64,000 nt of DNA, from assembly GCA_003971905.1 (NCBI GenBank), contig RSEE01000073.1, positions 248,001 to 312,000 of the forward strand, written 5' to 3'. Shown one piece after another: positions 1,402-64,000 of this stretch; positions within the stretch are counted from its first letter, which is position 1; every line of letters begins with the position of its first letter. Position numbers and translations under genes: made by a program. Below the pieces are notes generated by a model. That model did not search any database, was not told the origin of the DNA, and was given only the letters and a program-made list of their open reading frames with translations. The stretch is from Moniliella sp. 'wahieum' (lineage: Eukaryota).

Positions 1402-2087
1402 AGGACTAGAGACTAGGGGACTGGATGACTCGGCGACGCCAGATACGGGATGATGGCAGAGGCAGACCAGGGGGTGGGGTGGACGTGTGGGGGTGGCTTG
1501 GATGCGACGACAGGGGAGAGAGCACATGGTTGCCCGCGTGTGTAAGTCGCTGCGCTGAGTCTGATACGGGCATGTGTATACTGGTGCACTTGGTGATGAC
1601 TAGCTGTGACTACGCACAGCCCATCCTCCATGCGGCCAGTCAGACTAGTCAGATCGAGTCAGATCTCAGACGCGGCAGAAAGGGGTTGCTAGGGTTGGTA
1701 ACCCTAAGGGTGCCCACCGGCAGCGTGACAGGCAGCGGCTGTAAATGATTTATGATCCCAAGCGCCCCCAACGGCGGCCGACGCGGCGCGTGGGCTCGAC
1801 GCACACTGGCGCTGTGCGGGGGCGGGCGCGCAGGCAAGGCGGGCAAGCGGCGCGGCTAGGGTTGCTGCCGGGGGCCGTGGCCGGTGGGACGCAGGAGACG
1901 GTGGTGCAGCACGGCAGGACGCCGCGGCCACAAGCAGCCGCCGCCGAGTGGCAAGAGCAGCCCCCAGCAGCACGCACCCCCACCACTCCGCCCGCCCTCC
2001 ATCGCCATCCCACCGCCATCCCATCGCCATCCCATCGCCATCCCTCGCCCATCGCCCCCCGCCTCCTCAGCCCCTTCGCCCGCCACC

Positions 2088-4298
2088 ATGACCACCTCGT
2101 GGGCCAGCGCCAACGGCAAGCCCCAGCTCTCCTTTGCCGAGCGTCTCCGCCGCGCTGCCCCCAGTGCCAGTGCCAGTGCCAGTCCCAACGCCACCGCCAC
2201 CGCCACCGCTAGCGTCTCCCCCAACGCAAACGCAAACGCCAACGCCAACGCTGCTGTGCCAGCTCCGGACCCCCACCCACCCACGCCTCGGCCACTGCCG
2301 GCAAGCACGACCCGCCTGGCTCCCCCGTCACTCCCGAGCGCAGCACTCGCGTCTCCCCCTCCGTTTCGGCTACGTCGCCATCCGAGGAGGACTTCCCCGC
2401 CTTTGGCCTCAGCACATCTCCTTCCCAGTCTCGCGCTATCGACCGCGCTGCCTCCTGGGCCGCTAGCGTCTCCTACGCCCGCGCTCATCGCCACTCGGCA
2501 TCCGGCCCTTCCTCCACCCCCACCACCATCTCTCCTCCGGGAAGCAAGGCCTTCAACTCCACGCTGCCCTCGCGCAATCAGGCTTCGCGATTTGGCACCT
2601 CGGCGCCTTTGCCTACGTCGATGGCGCCCTCGTCCGTTCCACCTTCATCGGCGGCAAGGGGAGGTACAACCTCCCTGCCAGCGTGGCGAACCAATGGGAC
2701 GCCTGCCACGGGCCAAGGCAATGCGCTGGCACAGCAACATCCCCCCTCGCCCCGGTCCAAGCCCCCTCCTGTGAATGTGTGGGCGGTGCGCAAGCAACAG
2801 GCTGAGGAACGGAGGGTGGCCGAAGCCAAAGAGCAAGAGCGCAAGGCCACTGAGAAGAAGGACAAGGAGCGAGTGCATGAGACCAAGACGAACACCGATG
2901 CCTCCGAATCGTCCCAAGGGAGTCCACGCTTGCGGAGGAAAGACAAGGAAAATGAGCCGCGGCATGCGCAGAGTCAAGGTCATTCCCGCAGTAAAACCTC
3001 CCCTAGTAGCCCACAACGCTCCCTCCCACGTCGAGCTGAGAAGCGGCATCCCCAGCCCCAAACTGATGGAGAAGAATATGCATGGCTCCGGAACATTCGC
3101 CTCTTGAATGGAGGAGTCAATATGCCCTCCCTTGGCGACTTGGAACCCGAATTGTTCCCCCGAAGTCCGACCAGTTCCCCTCCTCCAGAGGAAACGCCTT
3201 CAACGCCGACTCAGGAGCACTCAGCCGAGGAACGCCCCGCGACAGAGCGCCCAACCGAGGAGGACCCTCCGCGAGCGCCTAAGCCTGGGCCGGCGGATCT
3301 GACCAAGGCCAAGGCCAGGCCCGTTTCCATCTCTGCCCCGGAAGTGGAGTCGTCCCGGAGAGGGAGGGGGCGTGGATATCGCAACACGGGGTAGAGGGGT
3401 AGGGCACAACCCTCCGCGCTCGTCAAGAAAGAACTTTAATTACCCTTATTCGGCATTGTCCTTGTCGCTTCCTTACTTCTACTCGGTCCCTTACTACGAC
3501 ATGGACTATGGCTACCATTATGGCGACGATGATCTGTCTACTTCTGCGGAAGAACCGCAAACAGAGGCCACAGAGGAAGGTACCCGCTCGACCAGGACCA
3601 CCCCCTCACTCGCCCCCCAGACTCCCGCTCCAATTCCTGCTCAAACTCCAGTTCAAGCTCAGGCTCATGCTCAAGCTTATCTCCCTTATATGCTGCTCCC
3701 CAACTCCCCTTTTGCCTCAATGGGCTATGGTGATACGCCCGTGCTCTATCTGCCCACAATGACGGAGACGGGTGAATCAACGCTAATCCCCATCTCTGTG
3801 CAACAAGCGAAACAAGCCGGTCTCCTTCCCTTTTCCCCACCCACCAACCTGCCCCCAACTTCCGGCGATGCCGATTCGACTCTGCGCCAACTGGTAGCCC
3901 AGATTGAGTTTTACTTTTCCTCTAGCAACCTTGAGGGGGATACCTACCTCCGCAGCTGTATGGATGCCCAGGGATGGGTCCCCCTAGCTACTGTCGCGAG
4001 CTTCAACCGTTGCAAGGCTCTACGAGCATCGTGGACGCATCTCTCCGGGCTACCGGATGCACACCTTTGGAGCCGGGTCGCGCTCGCTCTCCAGGCTTCC
4101 AAGGGTGTTGAAATTCACCCCCTCGGCACGCTGGTGAGGAAAAAGAACGATTGGGCCGCTTGGCTTTTACCCCTTTCCTGGACATCGACCACCACTATGC
4201 CTGTCCAAAACAAGATGTTGCCCCAAGGGGCCGCCGCCCTGCCACAGTGGTATTCGCCGACCCCTACAATGCCCTCGGACCCGTTGGAAGCATCGTGA
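2088..4298 (+). CDS. La-motif RNA-binding protein (LARP/Sro9-like), split by frameshifts
   Basis: La motif LVAQIEFYFSSSNLEGDTYLRSCMDAQGWVPLATVASFNR in ORF 3372-4298; low-complexity N-terminus with PVNVW motif in overlapping frames from ATG 2088. Confidence 0.75.
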
Positions 4299-4570
4299 CC
4301 GGCCTATCCTCCCATCTGATTGTCTCTTTTGAAGCTTAACGCTTGTTAGCTGAGGTTTGGACCTCTATGGCCCCTTTTATCAACGATCCAAATGATCTCC
4401 TGTTCACCGAAAGCGCGATGTGTTTGGTTCAGTCTCCAGGTTCCCGATCCCAAACCCCCTGCTGGCACAATGTATTCCCCTTGGCCACCCTCTTTGTATC
4501 CATTTGGTCGCTACTACAGCCACGTAGGACGAGCACGCATCCGAACTTGCTCTTGGGCTTAGACCCGCCC

Positions 4571-7433: not shown

Positions 7434-7854
7434 GGCGTCGACGGGCCTGGAGGTGGGGAGGAGAGAGAGCAGGCGGCGGGGGCGGCGACGCAGGCAGGCC
7501 AGGTGAGGCGCCCAGCAGGGCCGCACGGCCAGTCAGTCCGTCCTTCACGCGCCGACCGAAGAAGCGCTCGTCCGTCCGGCGGCCCGTCGCCACGCCGCAT
7601 CCGGTCTGCCCCGACCGGCACGGCGCCAGTGTGCGCGCGGGTGCCTCCGCCAGCAGGCTGCCGCCCTGCCGGCGGCCATTTCTAAGCGAACACACCCGGC
7701 CGCCCTGCTGACATCAGCGCATGAGCGGTGCATGCGGGCTATGTATGTGGCGCCCTGCTTTTGCGTCAATCATTAATCAATCCAGATGGCTACTTCGCAA
7801 CTACTACGGTCGCGCTATCTCCACAGCGCTTCGGCGCGCCGCGTGGCATGGCTG

Positions 7855-9039: not shown

Positions 9040-12000
9040 GGGCTCGGAGGGATAGGAGGCACATCCGGCCTGCGCACCAAGTACAAGGCAGTTTAAATGG
9101 GGTGGCGGGAATATGGGTGCTGCAATATATGAACTCGGTGTGGCCCACTGGGTCAGTGAACGTTGAACGGTGAACGACCGTCGATATTCAACGCTACTGC
9201 TATCTCCGAGTGTGGCTGCGGCTGGCAGGAACAAAGTGCCAAAACCGGAATCGCGGTCGAAGGAGGTCGAAGGACATGGACCAGGAGCCAGCCGCACGGC
9301 TAAGAACGGTTCGCCATTCGCGTGAGTAACCGGGGTCACCCTGGGTATGCCGGCGATGACGTGGAGATGATAACTTCCTTCTCCGTTGAGAAAAACATAC
9401 TATACTCTGTGAGGCTCTGGCACTCATATTGAATAGCCCATTGCCCTTTTTCTGCTTGTGTGTGCCTGCCAGATGCTCATACAGTATCATGCCCATTGCC
9501 GCATTTGCTTTCTATGGGCTCCAATGCTCGCTTCCGCCTTCTGTTTTCTGTTCAACGTTCACAACCGACGCCGCTTCCACGCTATACTTGGTTCACCTCC
9601 CTGCTTTTGACCAGCCTCTAACCCCTGTTCGGTCGCAGTCGGGCCCGTCTGATTGCGGCCAGAGTTGTTCAAAACATATATGGCAGTACTACAGTAACGG
9701 CGCAACCACAAGCATACTAGGGATCGACTATGACTCATCCGGAGATTATTGTGCAGAAGCAAGGGCAGCTCGTGAACGCCTCGGCCGAAAGGAGCATGGA
9801 AAAGCATGCGTACTATAGGCTAATGAGCGTGATTATCGATTGGCATGAGTCTCCTCTCCATTTGGATATCCTCAAGACAATGTATCATGGGCGAATCTCA
9901 GCCTGGACTTTCCCTTGGAGGAGGACACAGGCCACTCACGGTTGACCGAGCCTCAGATCCGAACGCGGGGAGCTAGAGACGGGAAGTGGCCTCTCAGTTG
10001 GGGCGTCGGCTCTTCGCGTGACAAAAGGTTGCATATGCGCCGGAACGAGCAGTAGCGTGTGGCACGTAATCCGTGGTCCTAAAAGGTTAGCCGGAAGGTT
10101 GTCGCTGGCAAAGACGGAGTATAAGACAGGCCTCTTGTCCGACAGAACAACTCAATTCTTGTAGGATCACTGCAGGATCCCTACAGAGCAGACTGAAAGC
10201 TGGAGATCGATGGCAATGGATACCCGGTCGAAAGGACAGGGAACGTCCACTCCGTCGCTGAACATGCAGATGTGAAGAGGCTGCCTTTGCGAAGGGTTCT
10301 TCAGCGTCCCGGACTTGGCCGTCGAATTTCCCGTTCGAACCGGAACATGCCGTTGGTCCACACATTCTCAAACAAAGGCGGCGGGCCTGCCCACCAGGAA
10401 GTGCATCTACCACCATGCATCACGGCCCTTTGTGGGTGGCCAAGAAGCCAACGGGAGGATTCCGCCCCATCGGGGAGGAACTCGCACTGTCTCCCCCCCC
10501 TATGTCCTCCTCTCCCTCCACAACCACTCGGCCGCCTCCTCATGGCTCCACTCCATCGTCTGGTCAGACATCTGAGCCTACTACTCCCGATACTGACAGC
10601 TAGTAGTGTGGCATGCACGATGTACACAGCGCAACACACGATCTACTGATATTGCTCAATTGGAATATCTGAAGATGAGACGGGATTGCCCCGGTGCCTG
10701 TCAGCTATTGCCCAGCATTCTTACTTTTGAGGCGATCACAGGTACTCTCCTTGGAGAGTGTCAGGGCGCTGTGGCCCCCCTCAACGGAGACCCCAACAAG
10801 GCATTAGACGGGTGACACGAGACGGGATTGAGACCTAGGAGGGACAAACGAGGCAACCAGATGCAAAGCATCCGTCAAAACACACTGGCGTCGTGCATTC
10901 TATGTGGCAGGGTATCAAATACTGTGTGCGGGGTATAGTGCCGAACTGCTGCTCAGCTCCTCTCGCGGTCCTCTGCCCATCGTGGCAGCAAGGAACCCAC
11001 AGATGGCCGTCAGGGTGTATAAATACCGACGGTCTCTTGTGAAAGAGGCCGAGGTCCGTGTCTCCCCCCCATCCTCTCCTCAGAAACGCTTGCCGGCATG
11101 CTGTTACGCTCTTCTGTTTTTTGCTTGCCCTTGCGTCCAATTCAAGCCGGCTCACCTCTGTCAGCGCGTTCCAGTTTACATTTCGCCCGTTTTTGTCACG
11201 GCCCCGGGAGCAGCGACACCCGTGCCACCCACAGCCACACTCCTGCGGCTAGTGTGGCTGGCCATGTGCCCCCGCGCATTCGAAACTCCAAGTTGGGCAT
11301 AATCTCATAACCCGACCAGGCCGTTCCATCCTCCGGAAGAGGTCGACGGCAGGTCAGGAACCAGGAGTGCGAGAGCCCCCGCTCACCCCGTCAGGTTGGA
11401 TGCGAACACGGTGGAGTCTCGACAGAGCTCCAGCGGCGCTAGCGGCGCCGGCCAAAAGGCACACGACGGTGGTGGGGGTGCATTGCCCACAAGTGTTGAT
11501 GCTGGTGGAAGCATGAGTCCTGAACAAATTCCTGCGTTCATTCCCGCCTCCCCCCCTTCCCTCCCCACCCGTTTGCGTTCCCGACTCGGCCTCCGTTGGC
11601 TGAATAGCTCGTGACATGTCAGTACCATTTCATCCTCCCTTCCCTCAGCCCTTGCCCATGCTCCGTCTCCGTCATCGTTTCGCTGTTGTGTTGATCATCC
11701 GAAAATGAGAATGGCGAGAATGAGAATGGTTGGTTGAAACTACGATGTGTGGCTCATATATATACTTGCATGTGTAGCACGTTGAGAATCCAAGGGTTAC
11801 TATGGAGAGGAAGAACCTCTGGGTATATATATCGTAGGTGCATGGCATGGACACCCTACTTTTTTGCTGTGCCAGACAAGCCTTTGGTCCGTCCCAAACG
11901 CTATTTCTGCGCACGAGAGGGGATGAACGATGCAGGATACAAAGCACTGCTGCTCATGACCGTGTATCGCTGCTCACTCGCATTGCTGCTCTTGACAGTG

Positions 12001-13902: not shown

Positions 13903-14687
13903 GGTTGGAAGTGTGAACGAAGTGCGCGATACGATGGGGCGAGAGCAAGGGAAGAGGAGAGGCGCGGTGAGTCCTGGTGGGGAAGATGTGTGTACAAGAA
14001 AGAGGCTGATGGAGGCGGCGAGGGCAAGAGGTATAAATACGTTTCGATGTTGGCGTGTTGTCCATTCGAAGAGTCTGCTCCAGATCAGATTGTGCAGGAG
14101 GATGTGCGTAGTGTGGCCAGTGCGTTTTCGGACAGGTATCTGTGATAGATCGATCCTCTTGCTGGCCCTACTATTACGCAGACGGCCGCCGGCCTCCAAC
14201 TCGGCCGTCGGTGTTCGGAGACCGGTGCCCAAGTCGCCGCACACAGCCCTTCTGCTGGGGCTCGGCGGGCAACGGTGACGGGATTTACCCCAGACGACGC
14301 TGATCAGCGTTTGCGCCCACTTGCGGCGGAAGTCGCGGTTGGATTCACCATGCAGGTTGCCGCTGCTGGAACTGTGCCGTGGCACTCGCAAACACCGACC
14401 GTTTGACCCGCCGGAGAGACCTGAAACGGCGCCAGCCGCCACTGTGGCGGCATTGTTTTCGGTGGCGGTCTGACTAGTGACTTCAAGTGAGCTTGTCATA
14501 CGCATACTAGGACGCCATGACGCGTGCCCCAGTTGATGCATGGTATACGCCATGGCACCGTGATTTGATGATTCAAATGACCCGTTTCTTCAGTCCAGGC
14601 CTCCGCCTAGGGCCTCGGGCCTAAACGTGCAATGTTGCCTCGTCCTTCTTCGACGTTCCTGTGTCTCCCGTTTCGATTAACCTATTG

Positions 14688-15757
14688 TGTTATGGGGTGC
14701 TCCGGTCATCTCTCCGGACACCGAGCTCCGCATGCCGTAGAATCCTCATCGACGCACACGCCATCCCCACGACACTTGTGGTTAAGAGCCGGCGCGGACC
14801 ACTTGCCGCGGATGTTTTCCGCGGAGTGCCAGGAGAGGACCGGACTTGAAGCTTGACGGTACGAAGTTTCGTATCCGCAGCATCCGGTCTTGATAGAACT
14901 CCACATCGACTGCGTATTGAGCTAAGTGGCTCGTGATTTGGCCAATGTCCCTTCAGCTCCTCCTCAGGCCTAGGAGTTCCGCTGTTTCCCCTCTCCTGTT
15001 TTCCTCCTTGCCCCGCAGCTTAGCCCCTGATGGCGACTGGCTGCTGGATGTTCCTCTGTAGGCATTGCTGGTTGCCACACCACCACCATAACCAGTGCGA
15101 TTGCATCACCCTCGAGGACCATCAGGACTCCAGGTCTCATCACTGCGGCCCACCGGATCGCAGTCTGGACAGAACAGGCCGCCCTTTGCCTTTTACTACT
15201 GTAGATTCCCCTTCCATCTGTTGATGCCTGTTCTGATGTTACGATATATAAGCAGCCCGGTCTGAGGCTTGCTGGCGGTGATCCTCACCGCCCAACCCCC
15301 CCGCTTCAACCCCGTCTATACCCCCGACTTCCCTCTTCACTCTTAACCCTTATACGCTTACGAATTTAGTACGACTTCCGTCGAGCACTCTGCAAGTCGC
15401 GGTTACTATTAGTAGCACTTGCTCTTCTTTAGCACTCTCTGTCTGTTCCCGCCAACTATAGCGTACCAAGTGTGGTAGCGCTGCGAGGAACGGAGTAACT
15501 CCGGAGACCCTAGACCCCGTTTTCAATTGGTCTACGACTTACGAACACGGCTCCTACCTCGGAGGGTCTGAGCTGCGGCCTTTATTGCACGCAGGCAGCC
15601 GCCCAAACTAGAGGGTCTCTCTCCCTTGCCTCTACACCCGCTCGGTTCAACCAGGATCTGAAGCAGGACCTAACGTACGTAACTCTAATGCCATGTCCAA
15701 GGGCTTTTACCCCTAACTTCCGGGGTCGAGCTCCGTCTCGGGGCTCGTCCCGTGACA
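14688..15757 (+). mobile_element. Solo LTR, copy 1, with 5-bp TSD TATTG
   Basis: TGTTATGGG...CCCGTGACA termini; TATTG at 14683-14687 and 15758-15762; TATATAA near 15245; homologous to 47753-48584. Confidence 0.9.
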
Positions 15758-17497: not shown

Positions 17498-17937
17498 GGT
17501 GTGCGGACCGGAAGGGTAGGGCGGCCACTGCGCGGGGTGGTGGTGGTGGTGGTGGGCGCGCGGGGCGAATGGGGCCTCTCGTGTGCGTTGAATACACCCG
17601 CTCTTCTGGCTTGTGACTAGTGAGTGACTTGCTCTCGCCTGCGCCCGATATTCTTTCTCCGCCTTACGTTCATTATTTCACACCTGGCTATATACCGTGC
17701 CCCACCTCTGCGGTCGGATCGATCATCGAGCTCAAAAGAATGGTTGCGTACCGAACGCCAGCCGACGGCGGCCCCACAAGAGGGGCGCTACGCAGCCAGA
17801 CGGTTGCAGGATGCAGATAGATGCAACACCAAGGGCAACGGGGGAAAGAAGAAGCTGGAAGGAAGGATGAGCAAGGGCGAGTCCTGCGTGCTGCGTCTCT
17901 CAACTGGCCTGGCCTCGGCCGGTCAGGCCAGTCAAGT

Positions 17938-20303: not shown

Positions 20304-21344
20304 GGAGGGCGTCGCCCTGTGGCGGCGGGGATCGACGTGGCAAGCAGCGGCTGGGCTGCAGGGGGGCATCCAGCATCCTGGCCTGCGCCAGCCAGTGAAA
20401 CGTTCAGCCGTGCTGAACGTTCTCCTGAGTGCAACATTGAACGTTGAAGGTAACACTCCTGCAGTACTCGTCGATCATCCACCATCCACCCTCCATCCAC
20501 CCTCGCTCTCCTGGCCGTGCCAACTGTTGCGCTATCTTGCCATCTTGCATGTCGCCCATCTCCCACTGCTCTTGGCGATGCCGCAGGCCAGAAAGAAGGG
20601 CGTTGCCTTCACAGAAACTGCTGCCGACTCCTAGTGCCTTTCCCTTGCCCTCCACGCGTCCGCCGCATTGTGGATCCACGCAGCGCCCGGATCCATAGGT
20701 ACAACAGCGCCTTTGCCATGTGGGTCCACCCTACCCCTGAGGCCTTAAGGCCCTCCTTGAACCGAGCCCGAGAGAGCGTCTGCCTCGTCTTGGCTTGAGC
20801 CGTGGGCATCATGCGCATCATGGGTCAACCGGTCATTGGACCACGGCTCCGGCCTCATACTCCCTTTGCTTGGCGCCTGTTGGTCCACCGTCCAACGCTT
20901 CAACCTCAGACTGACCAGCAGGGAGCTTGGCCCCAGAAAGCACGCATCAAATAAACTACAGGTAAATGTATGAATGTCCCAATGTGCCATCCAGGCCTAC
21001 TCTTTAGTTACATTGCCATGCCCCCCAACATCAACCAGCACAAGCTGAAGTTGGTCTCGGGGGGGCTGGTAATGTTGCCACGGGGCGTTGTTGGGGGGAG
21101 GGGGGCGCATACGCGTTTTGCCGATTACCGCAACCGCGTACCAGGTGACGGTGAGTTGAAGTCATAGTCACCGGCCGGCCGGCGGACTGGCCTGATACCG
21201 GCTCGCCGCGGATTAAATCAATTTAGGTTGGGTCTTCTGACGTGGGGTGAAGTTGAAGTCAACCTTGAAGAAAAGAGAGTTGTTCCCACAAAAGTGCGGA
21301 TAAAATGAGTGGACATTCGGATGTCGCCTGGTCGTTGTGCGCTC

Positions 21345-22651: not shown

Positions 22652-22858
22652 TAATGGTCCATCGGATTGGTTATACGAGGTTGAACGAACTTTGCTATGC
22701 TGATGATTACATCGGCGGAGCTCTACAAGCGCACGGCAGTGGATGAGTCCTCGGATGCTTTTGCGGTCAGGTCTCAGTAAGGTCTCGAGCGGGCGCGGAA
22801 GGGGAGGGAAGGGGGGGGGGGGGGGGGGGGGGTGATGGGATGTAGAAGCGCGCGGCTT

Positions 22859-35502: not shown

Positions 35503-36265
35503 CCGGTCCAGCTGAGCTTGATCCACATCCCGCTGGGACCCCACAGGGGACCCCTCCTCACAGGGTCAACAGTCATTCGTCACCCCCCAGATCCACGACG
35601 AGGAAGCTTTCAACCCCCTCCTCGTCCCAACGACCTCCAAAAGTTGCTTCTTGGGATGTTTATCCCCCTCGCCCCTGCATATGTACTTCAACACACATCT
35701 CTATGTCCCTCCGTTTGACGGTGGATAGCCACAACCTCTGCTCTACCCCTTTGCTACTTATCGTATAGTCGACATTCATTCGCAATGCACAGAGAGTGGT
35801 GCGCGTAGCTCGGAGATGGTCGGAATGACGATCGTGGCTGGTACCAGCTAATAAGATGGATCCTCGTAGTCTTGGGCAGAGTGCCATGTACCAGTGGGGC
35901 AAAACAACTCCGCCATGGCCGTACGCCACCCGGTGCTCAAGGCCTGCCTTGCCCTGGTCTCGCTTCTTCCGCAAGCGCATCACCTTGCTGTAGCTGCTGT
36001 AACATGAAACTGAGAGGCCAGACCAACCGCATTGCAAGCCTGATTGACATTTGAAATGTGAAATTTGAACAGTCAGCTGACGCCTTGCGCAGGGTTGCAG
36101 TGGAGCACAACTGGGCAGCCAAAAAAAAAGAAAAAAAAACGCGAATCTACATTCGACAGGACAGGTCCTAGTCGGCCCGCGTTTTTTTAGGCGGGCGGCA
36201 CGGGGCGGGTAGGATAACCTTGACGCAGGGGACAGACCTCTGATCCTCGCCCACCACCCACCTCG

Positions 36266-42794: not shown

Positions 42795-43553
42795 GACACC
42801 GGAAGTGTTCTCTTCCTGTACAAGTACTCCACCATGCAACAACGCTCCACCTTTTCAGCTTGAAGCTTCTCCACGTCTTCCAAGGTATCCAGCATCTGAA
42901 CTTGAGCCTTCAAGCTTTTCATCGTTCTCATGTTTTGAATGTGCAACAGCTGTGCCTCACCTTCCGCGCACCCGTGCCGGAACAAGCACAGCTGTAAATA
43001 TAAGCGGCACAGCCACGCGTATCGCAGCAGAGTAGAACGGCGGCGTACTCGCGGTCACTGGCACCGGCGTCGGTCACCTCCATCCTCTTCGATCTGAGAA
43101 TCTCATTACTATCACGTTCATCACGTTCACCGCTCTCTGATCTCTGATCTCATCGATCTTCCGAGATAGCTCAACATGTTCACAACGTTCTCAACGCTCT
43201 CATCAACGTATCATATATCAACCCTATACCCACATCCATATATAGCACAGCCTTATCCAGCAAAAACCCATTACATGCATCTCGCTATGGTGCGGAGCTC
43301 TCAGGCTGTGAGCGCTGGCTGAGAACAGGTGGCTCCACACTTTCCATGCTGGTGCACATGCTGACGTATGGGAGCCGCATGTGTGTAAACATCACCACGG
43401 CAGAGCTCCGAAAGGCGAAAAAGGCTCTGCGCAAAACCAGTTTATACACACGGGGTTCTTGCGAAAGCGTCTGACCGATCTGATCCACAGCCTTCCACAG
43501 CCCGGCCGTCTCCCGACTGTGATGTGCGACGCGTGACCGTCCGTGTCACTGGC

Positions 43554-43605
43554 CACTAGTCACTAGTCACTAGTCCACTAGTCACTAGTGAAGCTTGAAG
43601 CTTGA
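43554..43605. repeat. Tandem palindromic heptamers, (CACTAGT)n then (GAAGCTT)n
   Basis: Read directly from the sequence. Confidence 0.9.
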
Positions 43606-43731
43606 AGTCGCTCGCGACATCCGGTACAGTGAAACCCAAGCCCAAACAAACATTTGTCGCACCTTTGCCGCAATCATTAATCATTAATCAACGAACCCCA
43701 CCCAAAGCCTCAAAGCCTCCAACGCGCCTCG

Positions 43732-43782: not shown

Positions 43783-44499
43783 TTCGGGTGCTATAGGGAC
43801 AGACACGCTGACAAGAATCACACATCACGAATAACTTGCATGTGTCAACATATATGTCAACACACTTCTTTTTCACAACATTATCTGGTGATTTTCTTGT
43901 TAGGAAAACATGCTGCACTGAACACTGAACACACTTTAATCATCCGAAGAACGGCAGGGTGTTGCGGACGGTGGCTTGGATGGAGGAGTACATGTTTCGG
44001 TATAGTATCTGGGTTTCCGTATGGAGGCTGCCGACGATCCGTTGAAATGCTTGAGAAGGAGTTCAAGGGGGCGCACTCCGGAAGGGATGGTACATGAGGC
44101 CTGAGGTGTGCATCGAGCCCATGAGACATCCGCGCCACCAGCGCCACGAGCTTGCAATACGAGACGCCAACTCCGTATAACCTTCCACATCGCACTGTGA
44201 GTACTGAGTATTGAACCTTGAGCACTGTCATCGCCAGGACTGGCACAGTGTGTATTGATTCTGGCGGTATAGAAAGAGGGACGCGTGGTGGTGAGAGTAC
44301 CTTTGGTCCGGCGATGGTAGTGAACGTTGACACAGTATAAGCCTCTCAGACGGATTCACGCATACTTTTCTTCAACACACACGCGCCTCAGCAGAGCGCT
44401 CTCAGCAGAAGCGTTGAACGTTGACATGACTCGGTCAATACTCTTATTTGGAGCTGTATAGAGGGCATATCATCTCGATGTTGGCACGGGGCGGTCGCA

Positions 44500-45960
44500 T
44501 CCTCTCCTGACACAGCTCCCCATTCCATATTGGCCTTCTCTCATCGAAATAGTTCCTGTACGACTATAGTGAGAGGAAGTCAGCGGACGGAAGAGTTGAT
44601 ATATCCATTTGCTGCGAATATCCTCCATGGCCGCATGCATACACAGGATGAGCCCAACGCTACATAGGATGCTTCTCGTTCCCATTTTCCTCAGGCTTTT
44701 TAGCGACACCCATTTATGTTCTTGAGCCGACAGCGCAGCGCTTAGCACTCTTAAAAGGAAGCGCACCCAGTCATGCCTGCCAAGACGCCGCCGGTGGAGT
44801 CACGCACCCGTGGCGAGCCCCGCTGAGGTAGACCTGGCACCTGAGACGCCCTACTGAACGGGATCGGGACCAGATTTAGGAAGAAGGAAGGGGTCATTCT
44901 CCTAGGTCCTTGCGTATGGGAGGTGAGGATTGTCGCCGATCGTGATTTCGGGACTAGGTCGACAGCCTGAGGCCGGAGATATGCCCAAATTTGCTGGCAT
45001 AAACACCGTTCAGGGACTCCTCTTACCGTATGGAAGTACTTTACTCACAATACCACAAGCTGCGCCCGCTGCTCCGCACCATAGAAGTGGAGTGCGATCT
45101 GGATGATGTGCTTCACCGAGATTGACACTTTCATCTACTCTGCCGAGAGTTTCGACGGATGCGAGGGAACGAAATTCCTCAAGATAGGAAGAACGATCAT
45201 TATGACATTATGCTCGTGAGCACACATATTCGATGAATGTTGGGGGAGGATGAGATTGCCCGCTCTACTCGTACATTGCGCCCCACGCACACGTCCGTGG
45301 CCCACGAGATCAACGACTATTTGATCACCACTTTTGTTGCCCCCACGCACGCATAAACCCCGGACGCATTTACGACATAGCGCAGGCGCTGTTCAAAGAG
45401 AGGTGGGAGGAGGAAAGCAGGCGCAGGAACTACGCTAGAAGCTCCACGGGCCCGATGGTGGCAATTTGGTCGAGCACAGCAATGCGTTTAACTACACTAC
45501 CGACCCCTTTTTGATAGTGTACACGTCATCAATATCCATGGTGGCAGTGATGTCGCTGATGTCAGAAACCTTAATTATTCTGACATCGAGGATGTCAGCG
45601 CCATCTCGGCTCTCCCTAGCGATCCTGAGGTCAAGGATGCGAGTGAGGTCAAATCTGTTGTCGGCGATCACAACGACATCAGTGCCATCAGTCTTCAAGC
45701 TTCAACGTTCAAAAGCAAAAGGCAATGGTCCCTGGATCTGCTTATGCAACCTCGATGGTGGCCGGTCAGAGGGGCACCCTCGCATCGTATCTTTGTGCGA
45801 TGGCCCCGTGTTCCGCCGCTGTTCCGCCTCCTTGGGTGTGTTTGCCGCGTATTCGCTGCTTCGCCACAGTTGACCAGCGATGGGCCAGACATTCATCGAT
45901 CACACCACTACTTTTCTTTGCATCTCGTCCAACTGAGCGATCTGTGGGCGACCGCTATGC
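44500..45960 (-). pseudogene. Degenerate relic A of an unidentified gene family (boundaries approximate)
   Basis: CPSDRPPSRLHKQIQGPLPF and DNRFDLTRILDLRIAR..SRDGADI match the relic at about 50.0-51.8 kb; multiple stops. Confidence 0.5.
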
Positions 45961-46717: not shown

Positions 46718-46784
46718 GAAGCTTGAAGCTTGAAGCTTGAAGCTTGAAGCTTGAAGCTTGAAGCTTGAAGCTTGAAGCTTGAAG
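46718..46784. repeat. (GAAGCTT)9 array
   Basis: Nine perfect copies at 46718-46780 plus GAAG. Confidence 0.97.
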
Positions 46785-47595: not shown

Positions 47596-48805
47596 TGTTA
47601 CGAGGCGCCCCGGTGTCTCCCGACGCAGAGCCTCGCATGTCATAGGCATCTCTTACTAGCACGTCAGTCTCTACATAGGCTAGCAAGAGAGAGCTTATCT
47701 ATCCATGCAGCTGGGATCCTTCGCAGCCCGCTCAATATGGGCGCATGGGTACTGTTATGGGGCGCTCCGGTCATCTCTCCGGACACCGAGCCCCGCATGT
47801 CGTATAGAACCCTCATCGACGCACACGCCATTCCCACGACACTTGTGAGTAAAAGCCAGCACGGACGACTTGCCACGGATGTTTTCCGCGGAGTGCCAGG
47901 AGAGGACCGGACTTAACGGTACGATGCTTCGTATCAGCGGCATCCGGTCTTGATAGAACTCCACATCGACTACGGCCCCCCCCGGCTCGCAGTCTGGACA
48001 GAACATGCCGCCCTTTTCCGTTTACTACTGTAGATTCCCCTTCCTTCTGTTGACGCCAGTTGTGATGTTACGATATATAAGCAGTCGGTCGGAGGCTTGC
48101 TGGCGGTGATCCTCACCGTTGGGCCCCCACGTCAACCCCCGTCTATACTCCCGACTTCCCTCTTCAAGCTTCACTCCTCACCGTTATACGCTTACGAATT
48201 TACGACTTACGTCGAGCACTCTGCAAGTCGCGGTTACTATCAGTAGCACTTGCTCTTATTTAGGACTCTGTCTGTTCCCGCCAACTATAGCGTACCAAGT
48301 GTGGTAGCGCTGCGAGGAACGGAGTAACTCCGGAGACCCTAGACCCCGTTTTCAATTGGTCTACGACTTACGAACACGGCTCCTACCTCGGAGGGTCTGA
48401 GCTGCGGCCTTTATTGCACGCAGGCAGCCGCCCAAACTAGAGGGTCTCTCCCTTGCCTCTATACCCGCTCGGTTCAACCAGGATCTGAAGCAGGACCTAA
48501 CGTACGTAAATTTAATGCCATGTCCAAGGGCTTTCACCCCTGAATTCAGGGGTCGAGCTCCGTCTCGGGGCTCGCCCCATGATAGGTACGATGCTTTTTG
48601 TTCCCATTGCGCCCACAGTCTTGGCAGAACCCTTTGTCTGCTGCGCCCCCTACCGGACCGCGGACTTGACAGAACAAACTGCGCTTTATGCCTTACTACT
48701 GTAGCTCTCTTGCTAGGCATGTATTGGAGACTGATGACGTGTTTGGAAGAGATGCCTATGACATGTGTGGCTCCCCGTCGAGAGACACCGGAGCGTCCCA
48801 TAACA
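47596..48805. mobile_element. Element with diverged inverted termini of about 100 bp related to the LTR 5' end, interrupted by solo LTR copy 2
   Basis: TGTTACGAGG... versus ...CCCATAACA; flanks ACTCT and GCTCT. Confidence 0.7.
47753..48584 (+). mobile_element. Solo LTR, copy 2, with 5-bp TSD GGTAC
   Basis: TGTTATGGGG...CCCCATGATA (terminal CA changed to TA); GGTAC at 47748-47752 and 48585-48589; homologous to 14688-15757. Confidence 0.88.
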
Positions 48806-51794: not shown

Positions 51795-52190
51795 TACTAC
51801 TGCCAAAGGAATTGATAGGTATATACAAGGGCGAGAGCTCGTCCCACCCTACTGTTCCACCTCGCCCGCGGGACCGGCCCGCCCCATATGCATGTGACAG
51901 AGACCCCGATGACCGTATTCAATGACCAATCACGATGGATGGGTGGTCGTGAACACAGGCGTTACTTCCTCAACTGCTCTCGCCCGGGCGCTATGTTGAG
52001 ACTCTTTTATACTCTCCAATGCGAAATTGCTGCATTTGCTGGCTTGCATTTACCCCGCGTCAGAAGAGTTTTGCCGCTGGGACGGAACGGGGCGGAATGA
52101 GGCGGCAGCAGCCACGCAGAGCGCGTGCGGGGCAATCCCGCCTCCCCCACATTCGCCGGTCAGCCATTTACCGGTTACCCCACGACCGCC

Positions 52191-54535: not shown

Positions 54536-57220
54536 GGTGCTGAAGAGAGTGCGGCGATGGGGGTGGTGGGGGTGGGGGTGGAGGTGCGGGGCTGAGCGGT
54601 GGCGGTAGAAGCGGTCGGCCAGTGTCGGCCATCCCCCTCTGCCGGGTCAGATTGTGGACCATAGCCGAGGAATGATAGTGGATAGCCCCGCATCGGTGCA
54701 ATGCAGGCCGGTAGGCATGTGCATGGTGGATGATGCATGATGCATGATGCAGTACCAGGCCCCAGGCCAGCCTCTCGTGTGTATCGTCGGGGTCGCATGG
54801 TCCCTTGCAACTCACAGCTCCCATGCCTATTTTGCTAGCTAGTTGCTAGTCAGGGGAAAAGTCACCGGTCAGACTAGTTCCGGTACCGGTGATTATTACT
54901 ATGATAAGTAGCGGCGACAAAGCGAACGCGTGGAGACCGGTGATCTCACCGGTGCCTCCTGGAGCTCGGATGTTTCCTTGTTTGATGCGAGCGACCGATC
55001 GAGTTCGTAGCTGACGGAGGTCTGTGTGTGAGCTTTGAGTCCCTCCTGCTGATTTGATTCTACTTCCAATATTTGGTCTTTGACGGCCTTGAGCGCAAGC
55101 GAGAGCTCCATGTTGAGCTGCCGGACCTGGACGTCTCGTTTCCTGATCCAGGCGTCTCGTTTTCATTGGCCAGATTCTCCCCTCAAAGTGCCTTTTACGT
55201 TCTTGCTGAGGCGGAGAACCTGCCCATTACTTTGGGCCTTTTTCGTGTTGCGGCTATCTTCGAATTTTCCTGCATGGACCATTCGCTTGTATTCCTCCTC
55301 TTTCTACATCGTATGTTGCTTCCTTCAATTCCTGTCTGTATAGCCTTCTCGGTTCTTCCCCTAGCGGGTCTTTCTGTGACAACATCTCGTTACGGATCCA
55401 TCCTTGACCACCAGACAACCACCCGCATTGCTCCCTAGCTCACTAGCAGTCTCACTCACCGACCTGCTGCAGCTAACCGCCTTCGGGTCTACGGGAACCC
55501 CCTCTGCCCGCATCCTTTGTCGTCGACCTCCCTTCAGCTTTCATTCTCTCCCTGTACGGATCCGCTGCGATCCTACAAGTGGAGTTGTTCTTTCAGACAG
55601 GACCTGTCTATCCCGTCAACCTTGCGGCCAGCCCTTCAGGGCTACGGATTCCAGAGTGTCTTAACGAACACATCAGTTTACCGAACTCGCAGGACCTCGT
55701 GATCGGGATGAATGTCTTGGGTAAAGTCATTTGTTACCGCCTTGGGGTATACCTGGTCTAGAAGTACTGTAGTACTCTTTTCAACCCTGTGGTTTTGATA
55801 CCTCCCCCCTTCTTTGTTGGGACTGCCGTCGTTGGGGAAGCATTTTTGGGCTGCCAAAACCCATAGCAGAGGCGGAGGAGATCATCTACAACTTACGACC
55901 ATCCATCCACTTCGACCGTCCACCCTTCGACACCACCGCTACAATTGTCCCTGCCGTCTACGATCACAGTATTGACCTACCCCCACGTACAGAGAATGCT
56001 CTATACTACAACATGGCCCACGAAGCATGCCATGCCTCACTGAACTACACCGGATCCGTCGTTCATATATACTACCTGGTTCCTTTCCTGACTGTGTCGA
56101 GCTTGTGAGACCTGCTTCAACGTTGGCTTGATCTGCTTCATTGATGAACGTCTTCCGCAGGAGCCCAGCAGAGATTCGGAGTCGCAAAAAAAGAGGTCCA
56201 AAAGGGTCATTCTGCACCTCTCTGTTTGTATCTACTCCGCCTTGGTCTCCACTGCGCTAGGATCGGTGATTGTAGCTATCATTCGCTCTTGCCTGCTCTC
56301 GCCCAGGCTCTTAGTAAAACTCGATACGAAGGCCAAGTTTCTGTAGGGGATGTATCTGCAACTGTGTCTGAGAAACGAAGGGAGCTCTGGCAATTCCTCC
56401 ATTACATTCTCTTACACTTCACAGCCGTCTTTGAAACTCTTTGAGAGCAGACAAACACTGTCTGTGTCGTTCCAAACGCTGGTATTCTCTCCGCAGGCTG
56501 GCTCGCGTTAGAAGACCACTGAACCATTCAACAGTAAGGAACACATGATGCTGGGCGACTGGGTAAACTGATGTCTTTTGGGATTGGGTTCTTTTTCCCA
56601 TTCTTAATAAGCAAAAACAATGCAGACGGTATACGCAGCGTGACTGCCTCAGATTCAAGAGGGAACTGGCGTCTCATAGAAGGAGGTGTGGTTTCAACGC
56701 ATCCAGCGTTAGGACGCATACCAACAGACTTTTGGTTGCTACTGCCGTTGAGCACACAAAAGCGTCCAACGCCAGATCTCAGAAGAGTCCTTCCTCATTA
56801 ATCATTGCGCTCACCGCACCAGTTACATCCTCACTGCGTACTGAGTGGCGGGCGAGCCGCGTGCCCCTCGGTTGCGGCCGCCGTCGGTGCGCGCACTGGC
56901 CCCGTGCCGTGCCGCAGGAGGCGCGCTGGTGTGGTCCGTGCCCCGCGGCCAGGGGCGGTGTGTTAGGTAATGCGGCTGCGGCCGGCCGCCTGGGTTGGAT
57001 GCGTTGGCGCTGCTTCGGAGGCGCGTGGCTCACCACTGCTCCCGTGCCCCACCTCGCAGTTCCAGCATCACCCATCCTGCTGCCCGCCTCATCCATCCTG
57101 CGTGGCCGCCATCGTCGCCGCCGGTGCTGTGTTGCGTGTTCCAACCTGCCTTCCTCAGCACCACCACCCCCCCCCTCCTCTTCCCGCCTCTCCTCCGATC
57201 CCACCCCCCTCTCTCCAGCC

Positions 57221-61197: not shown

Positions 61198-61265
61198 GGT
61201 TGGGGGGGGGGGGGGGGGCGGGGAGTGGTGCGCAAAGGAGAAAAAAAAAGAGGGAGAGCAGGGGG

Positions 61266-61309: not shown

Positions 61310-61407
61310 TATTTGAAGCCGGAACTCGGGCGGAGGGGCGCGTGGGGGCGACGCGTGGGGGCGTGGGTGGTGGACGCGGATGGGCTGCCTGCTGCCTCCC
61401 ACCCGCC

Positions 61408-63733
61408 ATGGAGTACACCCACCTCTCCCCGCCCGCCGAGGCCGCCGCGCCGCCGCCATCCGCACCGCCCTCGGCACCGCCCTCGGCATCGCCATCCGCA
61501 CCGCCCTCCGCTTCGGCCGCCGCCGCCGCCTCCACCCCCGCCGACACGCCCGCCATGCTCCACACCGCCGAGCACTGGTCGCGCCACCTGGGCCCCGGCA
61601 AGGCGTGCACGCGCTGCCGCGCACGCAAGCTGCGCTGCTCCGGCACGCGCCCCACCTGCGCCGCCTGCCAGCGCCTCCAGGCCAAGGCCGAGCGCCAGGC
61701 CGAAAAGGCCGGCATGCCTGCGCCCGCGGCTGCCCAGTTCGTCGGCCTGTGCGTGTACGCCGACGACCCCACCCGCCGCCCGCGCCGCCCGCACGCACAT
61801 CCACCCCCGCCCCCGCAGGCAGCCGCGCCGCCTCCACCACGCCCTTTTCCCCCGCCTCCACCGGCACCGCCCTGCCCTCGTCCCAGCCCCCGCTCCCTCC
61901 CCACCACGCCTCCCCCCCCGCCCCCAAACGCGCCCGCACCTCCACCTCCGCCTCCACCTCTGCCTCCAGCGGCCCCTACTCCAACCCCCTCGACTCGCTC
62001 GCTGCCGCCGCCGTCGCCACCAGCGCAGACGCCCCCGTGCCCTCCCCCAGCTTCCTCCCCGTCCCGCTCCTGCCCCTGCCCCTCCCAGGCGCGGGCCCAA
62101 CCAGTCTGGAAGCATGCTTGTTCGCCTGTCTGCCGCCAACGCCTCTGCTCGTCCAGCACCTGCATACCTTTGCTGAGGAATGTTCGTGGCTATGCCCCTG
62201 GACAGCGCCTGCACTGGAGCAACGCGTCTGGGCCAACCCGACAGCCCTGCCGCTCGAGCGTCCAGCCGACGGCCAAGAAGCAGGGGCGCAACCGCCCCAC
62301 CCTTCGCTCTTGTTCGCCATCTTGGCCTGGGTTCACACCCTCCATCCCGACTTGCGCGCCGAGGTGCCGCCCGAGGGCCGAGTGTTGCTCCAAGCTCAAA
62401 CCTTGCTTTCCTCCCGCATTGCGTCTGAGCCTCGGCCGGGCGACGAGTACGCGTGTCTGTGCCAGGCAGGCCTTTCCCTTACTTGTGCTCCCTGTGCGCC
62501 GGCCGGGACGGGGACAACAGAAGGCCCGATTCCCTCCCCCGAGTTTCTCCAACGACGCTCGTCGCGCTGGCGACTGGATTTGCTCCAAGCTCGTGTCTTG
62601 CTGGATCAGTATACGTTTGCCCAGGCGCGCTTGGAGCGTACTTTACTCGAAGCCGGCGCGACGCGTCGTTTGGCTGACACCCTCGCTCTCCCTTGCCCTC
62701 CCCGCCCACCAAACCAGACCGAAGCGCCCGACGCGCTTGAACCTATTGATCTTGCTCTCCTTCTGCCCGGTTGGCTCGACTCGAGTCCGCCTGCCGAGCT
62801 CGATACACCCAAGGCGGAAAGGGACCGAAGTGTTAAGCTGGCTCATGCGTTTGATGCTTCGTTGCCAGCCTATGGCGGTCCCGTGTCCCCCGCTGCACTG
62901 GACCCCTTGCTGTCGTCCCCGCCTGTGCCTAATTCTAGTTCTAGTTCTAATTCCCACGACCTCCTCGACCTCTACCTCGCCTCGATGGCCTTGTTGGGCA
63001 AGATGGGTCAAGCTCCACTGTCCGACCCGGTCCCGACGCCATTACTCAACCACCTTGCCCAGCTCAACGCCGCGCTCCTTGCCCATGCACACCGCCTTCC
63101 TTCCGACCCACTCGTGCGCACCGCCCACCTGGCCCTGCTGGCAGGCGAGATGGTGCTCTACACGCCACTCGGCAGTCGGGCGGGCGAAGCACGCGGCGGT
63201 CGCGCCGGCTTGCTCCGCGCCGTACGCGCCATGGACCGCGCTGTGCCCCTGATCCAAGCTGGCGCAGGCGACGCACCGCTCCACCCCCCTTGGCGGCATG
63301 GTGCGTGACCCAGCTGGCTGCCGGCCTGATCCGCCTAGCTGCCGGTGGAGCGGCCGAGGCGCGGCCTTCGCACGACACGCTCCCCGGCGACGCCGACGCC
63401 GACGCGGGCACGAGCGCGGGCACGACTGCGGGCGCCGATCCGACGCACAGCGCCGACGCCGATGGTGATGCGCAGGGCGAAGCGGCTGCGGTAGCGGGCC
63501 CCCCATCGTCCTGGGGACCCATCTTGTACGTTCTTCTTGCGCCCGAAGACGCAGCGGGGGCAGGCGCGCCAACGCTTGCTCCAAGATACCTTCCAGCTCT
63601 GCTGGCTCTTCCTAGACCAGTATGCTACCCGCTTTGCCTTGGGGCAGGCCGCCAAGCAGGCCCTGCATCGCGTCCTGGAGCAGATGAAGCTCTGAGCAAA
63701 CCCGAGATGGTCGATGCGGGCGCAGGCGGCTGA
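61408..63733 (+). CDS. Zn(II)2Cys6 transcription factor (frameshifted, end approximate)
   Basis: ACTRCRARKLRCSGTRPTCAAC...CVY; body continues in ORFs 61380-63308 and 63290-63733. Confidence 0.85.
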
Positions 63734-64000
63734 GGGCTGAGGCTAGAGAGCGGAGCCTCCGGAGGATGCATGCCACCATACCAGATCAGACGGTTGCTGG
63801 GATAGATACCCGGGGGGCAGGGGGGGGCACGGGCACGAGTAATAAGCCTCATGGGCCTCATGGGGCTCCCTTAGCGGCGCCCACAAGCAAAGGTTATGAG
63901 GGCTGCGGGGCCACAGAGTGGCGCGTGACGCGTGACACGTGACGCGTCGAGTGCGACGACCAACCAGCGAAGCACCAGGCGTGCGAGTGGCGGCGGTGAC

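Follow-up and report, generated by a model that had tools for sequence, protein, structure and literature searches.

In hAT, Transib, RAG, and MULE systems, the flanking DNA is described as being sealed into hairpins, which Artemis-like enzymes of the host open, and end joining then leaves footprints (PMC5499845). The footprints of Ac/Ds are reported to be palindromic copies of flanking DNA (PMC4561436), and in rice, excisions were recorded as "perfect" in only 8 of 94 cases (PMC4423477). According to one account, Transib is the sole eukaryotic DNA-transposon superfamily whose target site duplications (TSDs) measure 5 bp, has strict targets in some families, and occurs in one basidiomycete, soybean rust (PMC1131882). 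The basidiomycete elements hAT7 (Pucciniales) and Kyakuja (a KDZ element of Laccaria and other Agaricomycotina) are listed with 7-bp TSDs (PMC12730594). The PIF/Harbinger element mPing uses a T-N-A target with any middle base, and in assays in yeast both TCA and TGA serve as targets (PMC4561436).

Here, we examined a 64,000-nt stretch of the basidiomycete Moniliella sp. 'wahieum' (RSEE01000073.1, positions 248,001 to 312,000; "the window," to which all coordinates refer). TNA sites in its noncoding DNA, mostly TCA or TGA, carry genuine 7-bp insertion mutations. As the initial annotation of this DNA had proposed, their form fits that left by flank-hairpin transposases (PMC5499845): a direct duplication together with nucleotides templated by the flank in inverted orientation. 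The footprints of Ac/Ds, other hAT elements, MULEs, and Transib, as well as V(D)J coding joints, likewise retain the target duplication and have short inverted flank copies at the junction (PMC5499845, PMC4561436), which are attributed to a flank hairpin opened off center. However, a single form accounts for nearly all events here, at a very high density, whereas the known footprints are described as heterogeneous (PMC4423477), and the present scars have no linked element in the window.

Signature and its sequence rules

A full scan of the window returned 41 matches to TSA-[4-bp palindrome]-TSA, which fall into 30 loci. All 26 coordinates given in the initial annotation carry this pattern, and four loci (41185, 43211, 44095, and 56795) are additional. 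The spacer was palindromic in 25/51 TGA-N4-TGA and 16/30 TCA-N4-TCA pairs, compared with 88/1,714 (5.1%) for all other triplets. In 100 dinucleotide-preserving shuffles, a comparison of the kind that the annotation had suggested, the 41 observed matches stood against a mean of 1.74 and a maximum of 6, which confirms the enrichment and agrees with the earlier chance estimate of about 2 per 64 kb. The exact 12-mer NNTSA + revcomp(NN) + NNTSA was found at 24 loci (0.22 expected from shuffles), and sequences one mismatch away from it numbered 42 (7.1 expected). These roughly 35 extra, decayed loci indicate that the process has run over time. The density of scars is about one per kilobase of noncoding DNA.

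The change can be written as w1w2-TNA-w6w7 becoming w1w2-TNA-[4-bp palindrome]-TNA-w6w7, where the palindrome is either revcomp(w1w2)+w1w2 or w6w7+revcomp(w6w7). The signal requires T-N-A, a 4-bp spacer, and an identical middle base in both copies. Palindromic spacers of other lengths were few (2/15 at 2 bp, 2/43 at 6 bp, 0/29 at 8 bp, and 0/23 at 10 bp), and pairs with opposite middle bases, which form a perfect 10-bp palindrome, had palindromic spacers in 3/19 cases versus 41/81 for the same base. When the 16 combinations of flanking bases (p-n-q) were compared, T-n-A alone stood out (26 loci versus at most 4 for any other); of the complementary cores, G-n-C gave 2 loci (among 10,970 triplets), and C-n-G and A-n-T were absent from the counts. 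The 12-mer form also occurred at two TTA cores, TTAGC-GC-TTAGC (41772..41783) and TTACC-GG-TTACC (52168..52179).

At 24/30 loci, the dinucleotide on one side of the site recurs in the palindrome; these loci comprise single sites classed as 'up' (8), 'down' (9), and 'both' (2) and five arrays. The 'up' sites include AATCA-TT-AATCA (7768..7779; filler TTAA), GTTCA-AC-GTTCA (9550..9561; ACGT), and GTTGA-AC-GTTGA (44412..44424; ACGT). The 'down' sites include TCAGA-TC-TCAGA (1659..1670; GATC), TGAAC-GT-TGAAC (9157..9169; ACGT), TGACT-AG-TGACT (14471..14482; CTAG), TGATC-GA-TGATC (31268..31280; TCGA), TGAGG-CC-TGAGG (41099..41110; GGCC), TCATC-GA-TCATC (42005..42016; TCGA), and TGAGT-AC-TGAGT (44198..44210; GTAC). 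At 42386..42399 (TGTCA-CA-TGTCA-CA; CATG), both flanks match. The four additional loci read CATCA-TG-CATCA (41182..41194; TGCA), TATCA-TA-TATCA (43209..43220; TATA), TGAGG-CC-TGAGG (44095..44106; GGCC), and TCATT-AA-TCATT (56795..56806; TTAA), and two adjoining scars with unlike fillers lie at 45693..45712 (TCA-AGCT-TCA-ACGT-TCA). At six loci, neither flank matches. Four of these are one substitution off the model, at the outermost position: TGA-CTAG-TGA (17613..17623), TGA-ACGT-TGA (20437..20448, where a CpG-to-CpA change would explain the mismatch), TGA-AATT-TGA (36059..36069), and TCA-CCGG-TCA (54861..54871). The remaining two, TGA-ACGT-TGA (44321..44330) and TCA-TCGA-TCA (45893..45902), correspond to the chance level (1.7 expected) and may both be chance matches.

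The fillers represent 14 of the 16 4-bp palindromes that are possible. When the pattern was searched as NNTSA-N2-NNTSA, the spacer was the inverted copy in 47/62 cases (1 in 16 expected), which, together with the 24/30 loci above, bears out the earlier observation that the palindrome tracks the local flank. The inverted copy is exactly 2 nt long; lengths of 1, 3, 4, and 5 nt gave 0, 1, 0, and 0 loci. By-products of +3, +5, +9, and +11 were absent or at the shuffle level in the window, and only +7 occurs. The simple repeat TSATSA was not enriched (30 observed, 24.8 expected). The flank that does not supply the palindrome begins with C in 13/19 single sites, and the mirror-image G on the supplying flank was found in 3/19 (discordant pairs, 11 versus 1; P = 0.006 by a sign test).

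Insertion polarity and location

Two solo LTRs of one family, both on the forward strand, served as comparators. Copy A (TGTTATGG...GTGACA; 14688..15757) is flanked by the 5-bp duplication TATTG, and copy B (47753..48584), which has a 231-bp internal deletion, is flanked by GGTAC. Their alignment spans 823 columns with 59 mismatches and 9 indels. Exactly two of the indels are 7 bp long, these are the only ones between 4 and 230 bp, and both show the signature; this is the outcome of the classification of 7-bp indels between repeat copies that had been suggested earlier. Each copy carries one insertion facing an unduplicated site in the other. The scar CTTGA-AG-CTTGA in copy A (14845..14856) faces a single CTTAA in copy B (CTTAACG; 47912..47918), and the scar CTTCA-AG-CTTCA in copy B (48162..48173) faces a single CTTCA in copy A (CTTCACT; 15335..15341). 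As these indels face unduplicated sites, they are insertion mutations and not a binding motif. The view that a mutational process is at work thus holds, both from the flank-copied palindrome and from the LTR insertions. The pair has accumulated 2 events per 48 TSA sites, versus 7.2% substitutions per base.

Open reading frames (ORFs) of at least 200 aa make up 52% of the window, and 27/30 loci lie outside them, an avoidance expected for frameshifting insertions. Pfam-matched stretches hold 0/30 loci, consistent with the earlier statement that none lies inside a conserved coding sequence. The locus at 9157 is in the N-terminal extension of an ApbA ORF, upstream of the ApbA domain.

Candidate mechanisms

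We tentatively favor, at a probability of roughly 45%, the reading that the scars are excision footprints of a cut-and-paste DDE transposon that is absent from the window, with a 7-bp nnTNAnn duplication and paired hairpins. Such an element would duplicate a 7-bp target centered on TNA. At excision, both flanks would be sealed as hairpins precisely at the element boundary, and a host nuclease would open each hairpin 2 nt 3′ of the tip. For Artemis, two P nucleotides are what opening 2 nt from the tip usually leaves. Each opening would leave a self-complementary 4-nt 3′ overhang consisting of two flank bases and two P nucleotides; end joining would ligate the two overhangs opposite each other, and then either replication would fix one of them or one would be trimmed back while fill-in synthesis completes the other. 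The predicted product, [w1-w5][palindrome][w3-w7], would always be +7, with TNA on either side and a palindrome from either flank. By analogy, the chemistry would be of the hAT/Transib/RAG type.

We infer the 7-bp duplication from the product alone, and a 5-bp duplication with one-sided P nucleotides would give the same letters. Nevertheless, the symmetric 7-bp reading fits better than 5 bp plus two P nucleotides: opening both hairpins at +2 on a 7-bp duplication makes the target symmetric again and accounts for the exclusive occurrence of +7, as the opposite-overhang model predicts +7 alone, and a two-fold symmetric target predicts that 'up' and 'down' sites should be equally frequent, as they are. 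The TSDs listed for hAT7 and Kyakuja have the length that this model needs, and the unlike ends of Kyakuja (CA..TG without terminal inverted repeats [TIRs]) could accommodate the C bias; however, we found no occurrence in Ustilaginomycotina reported in that source (PMC12730594). The single dominant form, unlike the heterogeneous footprints elsewhere, and the very high scar density count against the excision model, and the C bias beside the site is not predicted by its symmetric form. The nick of hAT elements, known from work on Hermes, is offset by 1 nt and gives odd palindromes with a complemented terminal base; the even palindromes seen here therefore also count against it. The search for elements and transposases that had been suggested earlier yielded no TIR-bearing element flanked by an nnTNAnn or NNTSA duplication in the 64 kb and no transposase domain in the 35 ORFs scanned, a subset of those in the window. 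Harbinger shares the T-N-A target but differs in having only a 3-bp duplication and precise excision via complementary 5′ overhangs. By our own derivation, a 3-bp duplication cannot account for the flank dinucleotide being present twice, and the lack of TSATSA enrichment also departs from Harbinger.

The initial annotation had parsed the insertions as a 5-bp duplication with two P nucleotides, as would arise if a Transib-like element targeted NNTSA and one hairpin yielded both P nucleotides while the other flank was joined without any. The letters of the 12-mer do fit a 5-mer, two inverted nucleotides, and a 5-mer, and Transib offers 5-bp TSDs, strict targets, and the soybean rust occurrence; Transib-N1_AG (cCASTGg) in particular resembles the present case in its short duplication, central S, and strict short target (PMC1131882). 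However, Transib targets as quoted there are 5-bp palindromes (PMC1131882), whereas the present target, read as 5 bp, is nonpalindromic and asymmetric (NNTSA, then C). The P nucleotides would come from the NN side only: TSA-side forms gave 5 matches in the window, which we take to sit in ambiguous CATCA arrays, and +5 forms without P nucleotides gave 3. An asymmetric target and one-sided P nucleotides are a misfit with a two-fold symmetric transposase. Moreover, a 5-bp duplication with opposite-overhang ligation would give +5 and not +7 (our own derivation), and no CAC...GTG element with 5-bp-type duplications is present in the window. We therefore consider this parsing improbable. It is unlikely, although to be taken seriously, that the scars formed without a mobile element, through a host nuclease such as a domesticated transposase repeatedly making staggered breaks or hairpins at TNA sites that end joining turns into +7; the scars would then be an endogenous mutational signature. 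This would suit the single uniform product, the per-site rate comparable to base substitution, the occurrence of scars in unique intergenic DNA and LTR relics alike, the lack of an element within the window, and the C bias, which suggests asymmetric recognition. On the other hand, duplicating the target requires a pair of cuts separated by 5 to 7 nt, together with hairpin chemistry at free ends, which is known for transposases on element ends and not for a stand-alone nuclease, and we found neither a candidate gene among the ORFs scanned nor a comparable mutational signature in the literature searched.

A replication or repair error, in which a nascent TNA end snaps back or switches template, copies two bases inverted, and realigns 5 nt back, would draw on the quasi-palindromic nature of TNA, whose T and A may pair across the middle base, and on the inserted 7-mer w1w2-TNA-w2′w1′ being an odd palindrome. 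Mutations by template switching at quasi-palindromes form a known class. Despite stronger G:C pairing, though, G-n-C and C-n-G cores are inactive, as is A-n-T; the copies are exclusively 2 nt; the middle base is copied directly, as the contrast between opposite and same middle bases shows; and the return to the template would have to occur without homology at both verified empty sites. As a purely structural process, the snap-back at TNA proposed earlier is thus disfavored, and we regard it as very improbable. Scarcely credible is a selected cis-regulatory motif (TGA or TCA repeated directly at a distance of 7 bp) or an artifact of assembly or sequencing. The sites are intergenic, and common fungal transcription factors have half-sites similar to TGAC and TCAC, but the 14 different spacers are all palindromic and flank copied, and the same event is found in decaying solo LTRs. 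We know of no protein that reads flank-copied palindromic spacers, nor of a sequencing error by which a 7-mer dependent on the flank would be inserted, and the decayed one-mismatch copies argue against both motif and artifact.

Arrays of 7-bp units

Several loci are tandem arrays: TCACTAG units (43554..43575; filler CTAG), abutted by TGAAGCT units (43589..43607; AGCT); AATCA-TT-AATCA-TT-AATCA (43672..43690; TTAA); 9.6 perfect GAAGCTT units, i.e., repeated TGA-AGCT (46718..46784); and TGATGCA units (54730..54751; TGCA). A scar or short array, CGTGA-CG-CGTGA (63922..63936; CGCG), is followed by a degenerate unit. Arrays may have arisen because the target, once regenerated, was visited again, or through slippage. 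A mechanism of microhomology-mediated tandem duplication is reportedly described in a 2026 bioRxiv preprint, and such duplication or slippage could expand the 5 + 2 + 5 12-mer into the arrays at 43554, 43589, 43672, 46718, and 54730. It needs a preexisting repeat, however, and both verified empty sites lack one, so slippage cannot make the first copy or the palindrome. The ancestral sequence deduced at the 43589 array contains two inverted TCAC sites.

Abundance and sequence rule of the +7 scars

The initial annotation listed 26 coordinates at which a TCA or TGA triplet (TSA, where S is C or G) recurs after a 4-bp palindrome, and TSA-[4-bp palindrome]-TSA was present at all 26. An exhaustive scan of the window returned 41 such 10-mers, which make up 30 loci, four of them (41185, 43211, 44095, and 56795) beyond that list. 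The enrichment proposed at that stage held against a shuffled control, as 100 dinucleotide-preserving shuffles gave a mean of 1.74 and a maximum of 6 against the 41 observed. The spacer was palindromic in 25 of 51 TGA-N4-TGA and 16 of 30 TCA-N4-TCA occurrences versus 88 of 1,714 for the remaining triplets pooled, and 14 distinct palindromes were seen as filler. Spacers of 2, 6, 8, or 10 bp between TSA copies gave no signal in the window scan, nor did second triplets with a complementary middle base (only 3 of 19 palindromic). When sixteen p-n-q cores were compared, T-n-A alone was enriched, with 26 loci, and every other pair had at most 4 (G-n-C had 2, and C-n-G and A-n-T were absent from the counts). 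TTA cores occur at two exact loci in the 12-mer form described below (41772 and 52168); therefore, the rule is TNA, in which S is strongly preferred as the middle base.

The palindrome had been said to follow the local flank, and it does. The 12-mer in which NNTSA is repeated after the reverse complement of its NN was found exactly at 24 loci (0.22 expected) and with one mismatch at 42 loci (7.1 expected), while 47 of 62 NNTSA-N2-NNTSA occurrences had the inverted dinucleotide as spacer, where 1 in 16 is expected. By the flank dinucleotide that the palindrome matches, the 30 loci divide into single sites of upstream (8), downstream (9), or both (2) types, 5 arrays, and 6 loci matching neither flank; in four of these last, a single substitution at the outermost base separates the locus from the rule, and the remaining two are no more than chance would give. 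A direct repeat of 5 nt spaced 7 nt is present at 24 of the 30 loci.

The gain is confined to 7 bp. Extending the 12-mer rule to flanks of n nucleotides, N(n)TSA-revcomp(N(n))-N(n)TSA, gave 24 loci for n = 2 (+7) and 0, 1, 0, and 0 loci for n = 1, 3, 4, and 5. Plain TSATSA was at the shuffle level (30 versus 24.8 expected), two successive 4-bp palindromes between TSA copies (+11) did not occur in the window, and neither the +3, +5, +9, +11, and +13 analogues nor products keeping both overhangs exceeded the shuffle level. A general scan of duplication lengths of 3 to 9 against inverted lengths of 0 to 4 showed prominent period-7 parses alongside ordinary tandem repeats; its (4,3) and (6,1) signals were the same loci parsed differently. 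Within the literature searched, we found no description of TNA-[palindrome]-TNA or a comparable +7 signature in fungi.

The window has a G+C content of 59.8% and carries fungal genes, among them, by Pfam searches of ORFs, ATP-citrate-lyase-like, Prp31, Zds_C, Zn2Cys6 factor, and PIG-M genes. The closest named relatives of its Prp31 are in Ustilaginomycotina, with Tilletiaria anomala at the top (56% identity). The scars shun long ORFs, with 27 of the 30 loci lying outside them (these ORFs span 52% of the window), an avoidance that 7-base frameshifts are expected to produce. The stretch at 41 to 52 kb, with a G+C content of only 51 to 56% and no Pfam-matched ORF, resembles a decaying transposon graveyard.

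Scars and unduplicated sites in a pair of solo LTRs

Two solo LTRs of one family allowed scars to be compared with unduplicated sites. Copy A (14688-15757; TGTTATGG...GTGACA) has the 5-bp duplication TATTG on both sides and copy B (47753-48584) has GGTAC, and further fragments of this LTR lie at 47050-47269, 47596-47700, and 48705-48805 (inverted). The alignment of the copies spans 823 columns and shows 59 substitutions and 9 indels. Only two of the indels are sized between 4 and 230 bp, and each is the +7 signature. CTTGA-AG-CTTGA in copy A (14845) lies opposite a single CTTAA in copy B (47912), and CTTCA-AG-CTTCA in copy B (48162) lies opposite a single CTTCA in copy A (15335). Thus, a paralog with the unduplicated site was found for both testable loci, and the +7 signature is an insertion. 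The pair records 2 events per 48 TSA sites versus 7.2% substitutions per base, a per-site scar rate of the order of that of a point substitution. Five more diverged repeat pairs (14926/47050, 47453/49013, 47596/48805 inverted, 45966/46126, and 46289/46384) contained no clean 7-bp indel of the signature type.

Candidate mechanisms and their sources

The scars could be produced as follows. An element would duplicate nnTNAnn (w1 to w7) as a 7-bp target duplication, and both flanks would be sealed as hairpins precisely at the element boundary. Nicking of each hairpin 2 nt 3′ of its tip would leave the duplex stopping at TNA on both sides, with a 4-nt self-complementary 3′ overhang on each end (w6w7w7′w6′ on the left and the complement of w2′w1′w1w2 on the right). 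Ligation of the overhangs opposite each other would give [w1-w5][4 nt][w3-w7], and one palindrome would then be fixed by replication or by trimming of one overhang and filling of the other. Hairpin opening at +2 is canonical, and mismatched overhangs are joined by ligase IV. In this symmetric scheme, the duplicated triplet is TNA because it is the center of the 7-bp duplication, and the scheme also accounts for the even, 4-bp palindrome taken from one flank only, the equal numbers of upstream and downstream types, and the exclusive +7 products. The initial annotation had parsed the scars as a 5-bp duplication plus 2 P nucleotides, which reproduces the letters at the cost of a lopsided target and P nucleotides on one side only. 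Both produce the same letters; of the two, the symmetric 7-bp scheme is the one we prefer, as an inference.

Known systems resemble the scars in part. Hairpins on the flanks, opened in an Artemis-like manner, have been described for hAT, Transib, RAG, and MULE (PMC5499845), and Ac/Ds footprints are described as palindromic copies of the DNA flanking the element (PMC4561436). V(D)J coding joints contain P nucleotides, and the scars share their inverted-flank junction bases. On this analysis, the scars work in the manner of excision footprints of the hairpin type or of P-nucleotide joints in V(D)J recombination, and we assign them to no superfamily (Transib, hAT, Harbinger, or KDZ). For Transib, the chemistry proposed initially, the scar letters parse as 5 bp and equally as 7 bp; a palindromic target with symmetric flanks is not found, as the 5-bp parse gives NNTSA followed by C, with one-sided P nucleotides. 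A Transib element would have CAC...GTG heptamer-like terminal repeats and a RAG1-like transposase, and the generic scan for terminal inverted repeats with target duplications yielded no candidate in the window. While hAT elements make 8-bp target duplications, those of hAT7 are 7 bp, the length that the +7 gain and the [w1-5][4-bp palindrome][w3-7] form fit. In hAT excision (Hermes and Ac), the first nick falls 1 nt inside the flank, and the footprints have odd palindromes or carry the complement of the terminal base. By our own derivation, this 1-nt offset predicts odd palindromes, whereas the fillers are even, 4 bp long, and retain both flank bases. PIF/Harbinger elements share the TNA core in their 3-bp duplication, but their excision is mostly precise, and TSATSA is at chance; we also derive that a second copy of the flank dinucleotide is impossible from any 3-bp duplication, Harbinger or CACTA-like, by hairpins or by 5′ overhangs. 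Basidiomycete hAT7 and Kyakuja elements are reported to make 7-bp duplications (PMC12730594), and for Kyakuja (KDZ; CA..TG termini), the length alone agrees with the scars.

The window was also searched for a source. It contains no resident element with terminal repeats and a matching target duplication. The scan for terminal inverted repeats with target duplications and the scan of nnTNAnn 7-mer pairs for terminal similarity or CA..TG ends each yielded chance-level candidates only, and four CA..TG candidates with nnTNAnn repeats lack terminal similarity. Pfam searches of 35 ORFs, 20 of them from the ORF-poor 41- to 52-kb stretch, identified no transposase, reverse transcriptase, or integrase. 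The absence of a matching element from the window and of a transposase domain from all 35 ORFs counts against reading the scars as excision footprints of an absent cut-and-paste DDE element. So does the uniformity of the scars, given that footprints in other systems are heterogeneous; "perfect" excisions in rice accounted for only 8 of 94 (PMC4423477).

Our own derivations from LTR-integrase, TPRT, Top1, Top2, Spo11-type, and telomere-resolvase-like cuts fail to yield the +7 product. A purely structural snap-back, which the initial annotation had entertained, is contradicted by the invariant 2-nt copy, as well as by the lack of events at G-n-C and C-n-G cores. Slippage or microhomology-mediated tandem duplication is rejected as the origin, as the empty sites are single copy with no preexisting repeat; the period-7 run in most single loci is 12 to 13 nt versus 14 nt for a plain tandem copy. 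One feature escapes every model considered. Among 19 oriented single scars (for example, those at 9550, 14845, 41183, and 48162), 13 have C directly after the second TNA (binomial P of about 1e-4, post hoc), whereas only 3 have G at the mirror position ahead of the first TNA (discordant pairs, 11 versus 1; P = 0.006). This bias is not predicted by a symmetric target with unbiased fixation. It suggests that the two element ends are unlike, that hairpin processing depends on sequence, or that a host enzyme recognizes an asymmetric site.

It is conceivable, though we consider it rather unlikely, that +7 scars outnumber all other classes of indel in this genome, made either by an unrecognized and very active family of basidiomycete transposons that leaves 7-bp TNA-centered duplications and whose excision is followed by stereotyped repair or by an element-free, host transposase-derived nuclease acting at TNA(C). 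Such a host nuclease would constitute an endogenous, sequence-specific insertion signature with a per-site rate near that of base substitution, and it would continuously add 7-bp repeats and restriction-like palindromes to promoters. If no element is found, the data would define a new endogenous indel signature made by a nuclease. If the scars are instead excision footprints, they would form an unusually clean genome-wide log of former transposon visits, about one per kilobase of noncoding DNA, and target choice, hairpin-opening position, and end joining would be readable from one assembly of a fungal lineage that has been little studied. By seeding 7-bp microsatellites, doubling TGAC/TCAC half-sites in promoters, and making 4- to 6-bp palindromes, the scars steadily supply regulatory variation. 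The [w1-5][palindrome][w3-7] rule is simple, and a scan for it in any genome can reveal hairpin-forming transposons without surviving copies.

Arrays and neighboring repeats

The array of the unit TGAAGCT (46718-46784) has 9.6 perfect copies, and other array units are TCACTAG, TCATTAA, and TGATGCA. The arrays fit either repeated events at a regenerated target or slippage from a 5+2+5 seed. At 45693, two unlike fillers are adjacent. A 55-bp segment (46289-46343) is duplicated 95 bp downstream (46384-46439) with 98% identity and adjoins the long TGAAGCT array.

The scar-rich region also contains a perfect fold-back (42494-42795) with two 119-nt arms that are 100% complementary, 64 nt between them, and ACA at both borders; it represents a fold-back element or else an inverted duplication of very recent origin. 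At 42857-42869, AGCT-TGA-AGCT-TCT has the form palindrome-TGA-palindrome and may be a decayed scar whose second TGA has mutated. An ATTGAAC array (5788-5813) and ATTGA-AC-GTTGA (20437) resemble ACGT-filler scars after CpG-to-CpA change, which hints at CpG hypermutability in this genome, perhaps through methylation. In a minisatellite at 50669-50822, an 18-bp unit (ACGTCWAWGMCACCCCCG) recurs about 8.5 times, and higher-order periodicities of 36, 54, and 72 bp are superimposed. General low-complexity G-rich tracts near genes (39661-39750, 22811-22832, and 61202-61223) comprise a (GGTGGATGGATG)n array and long runs of G.
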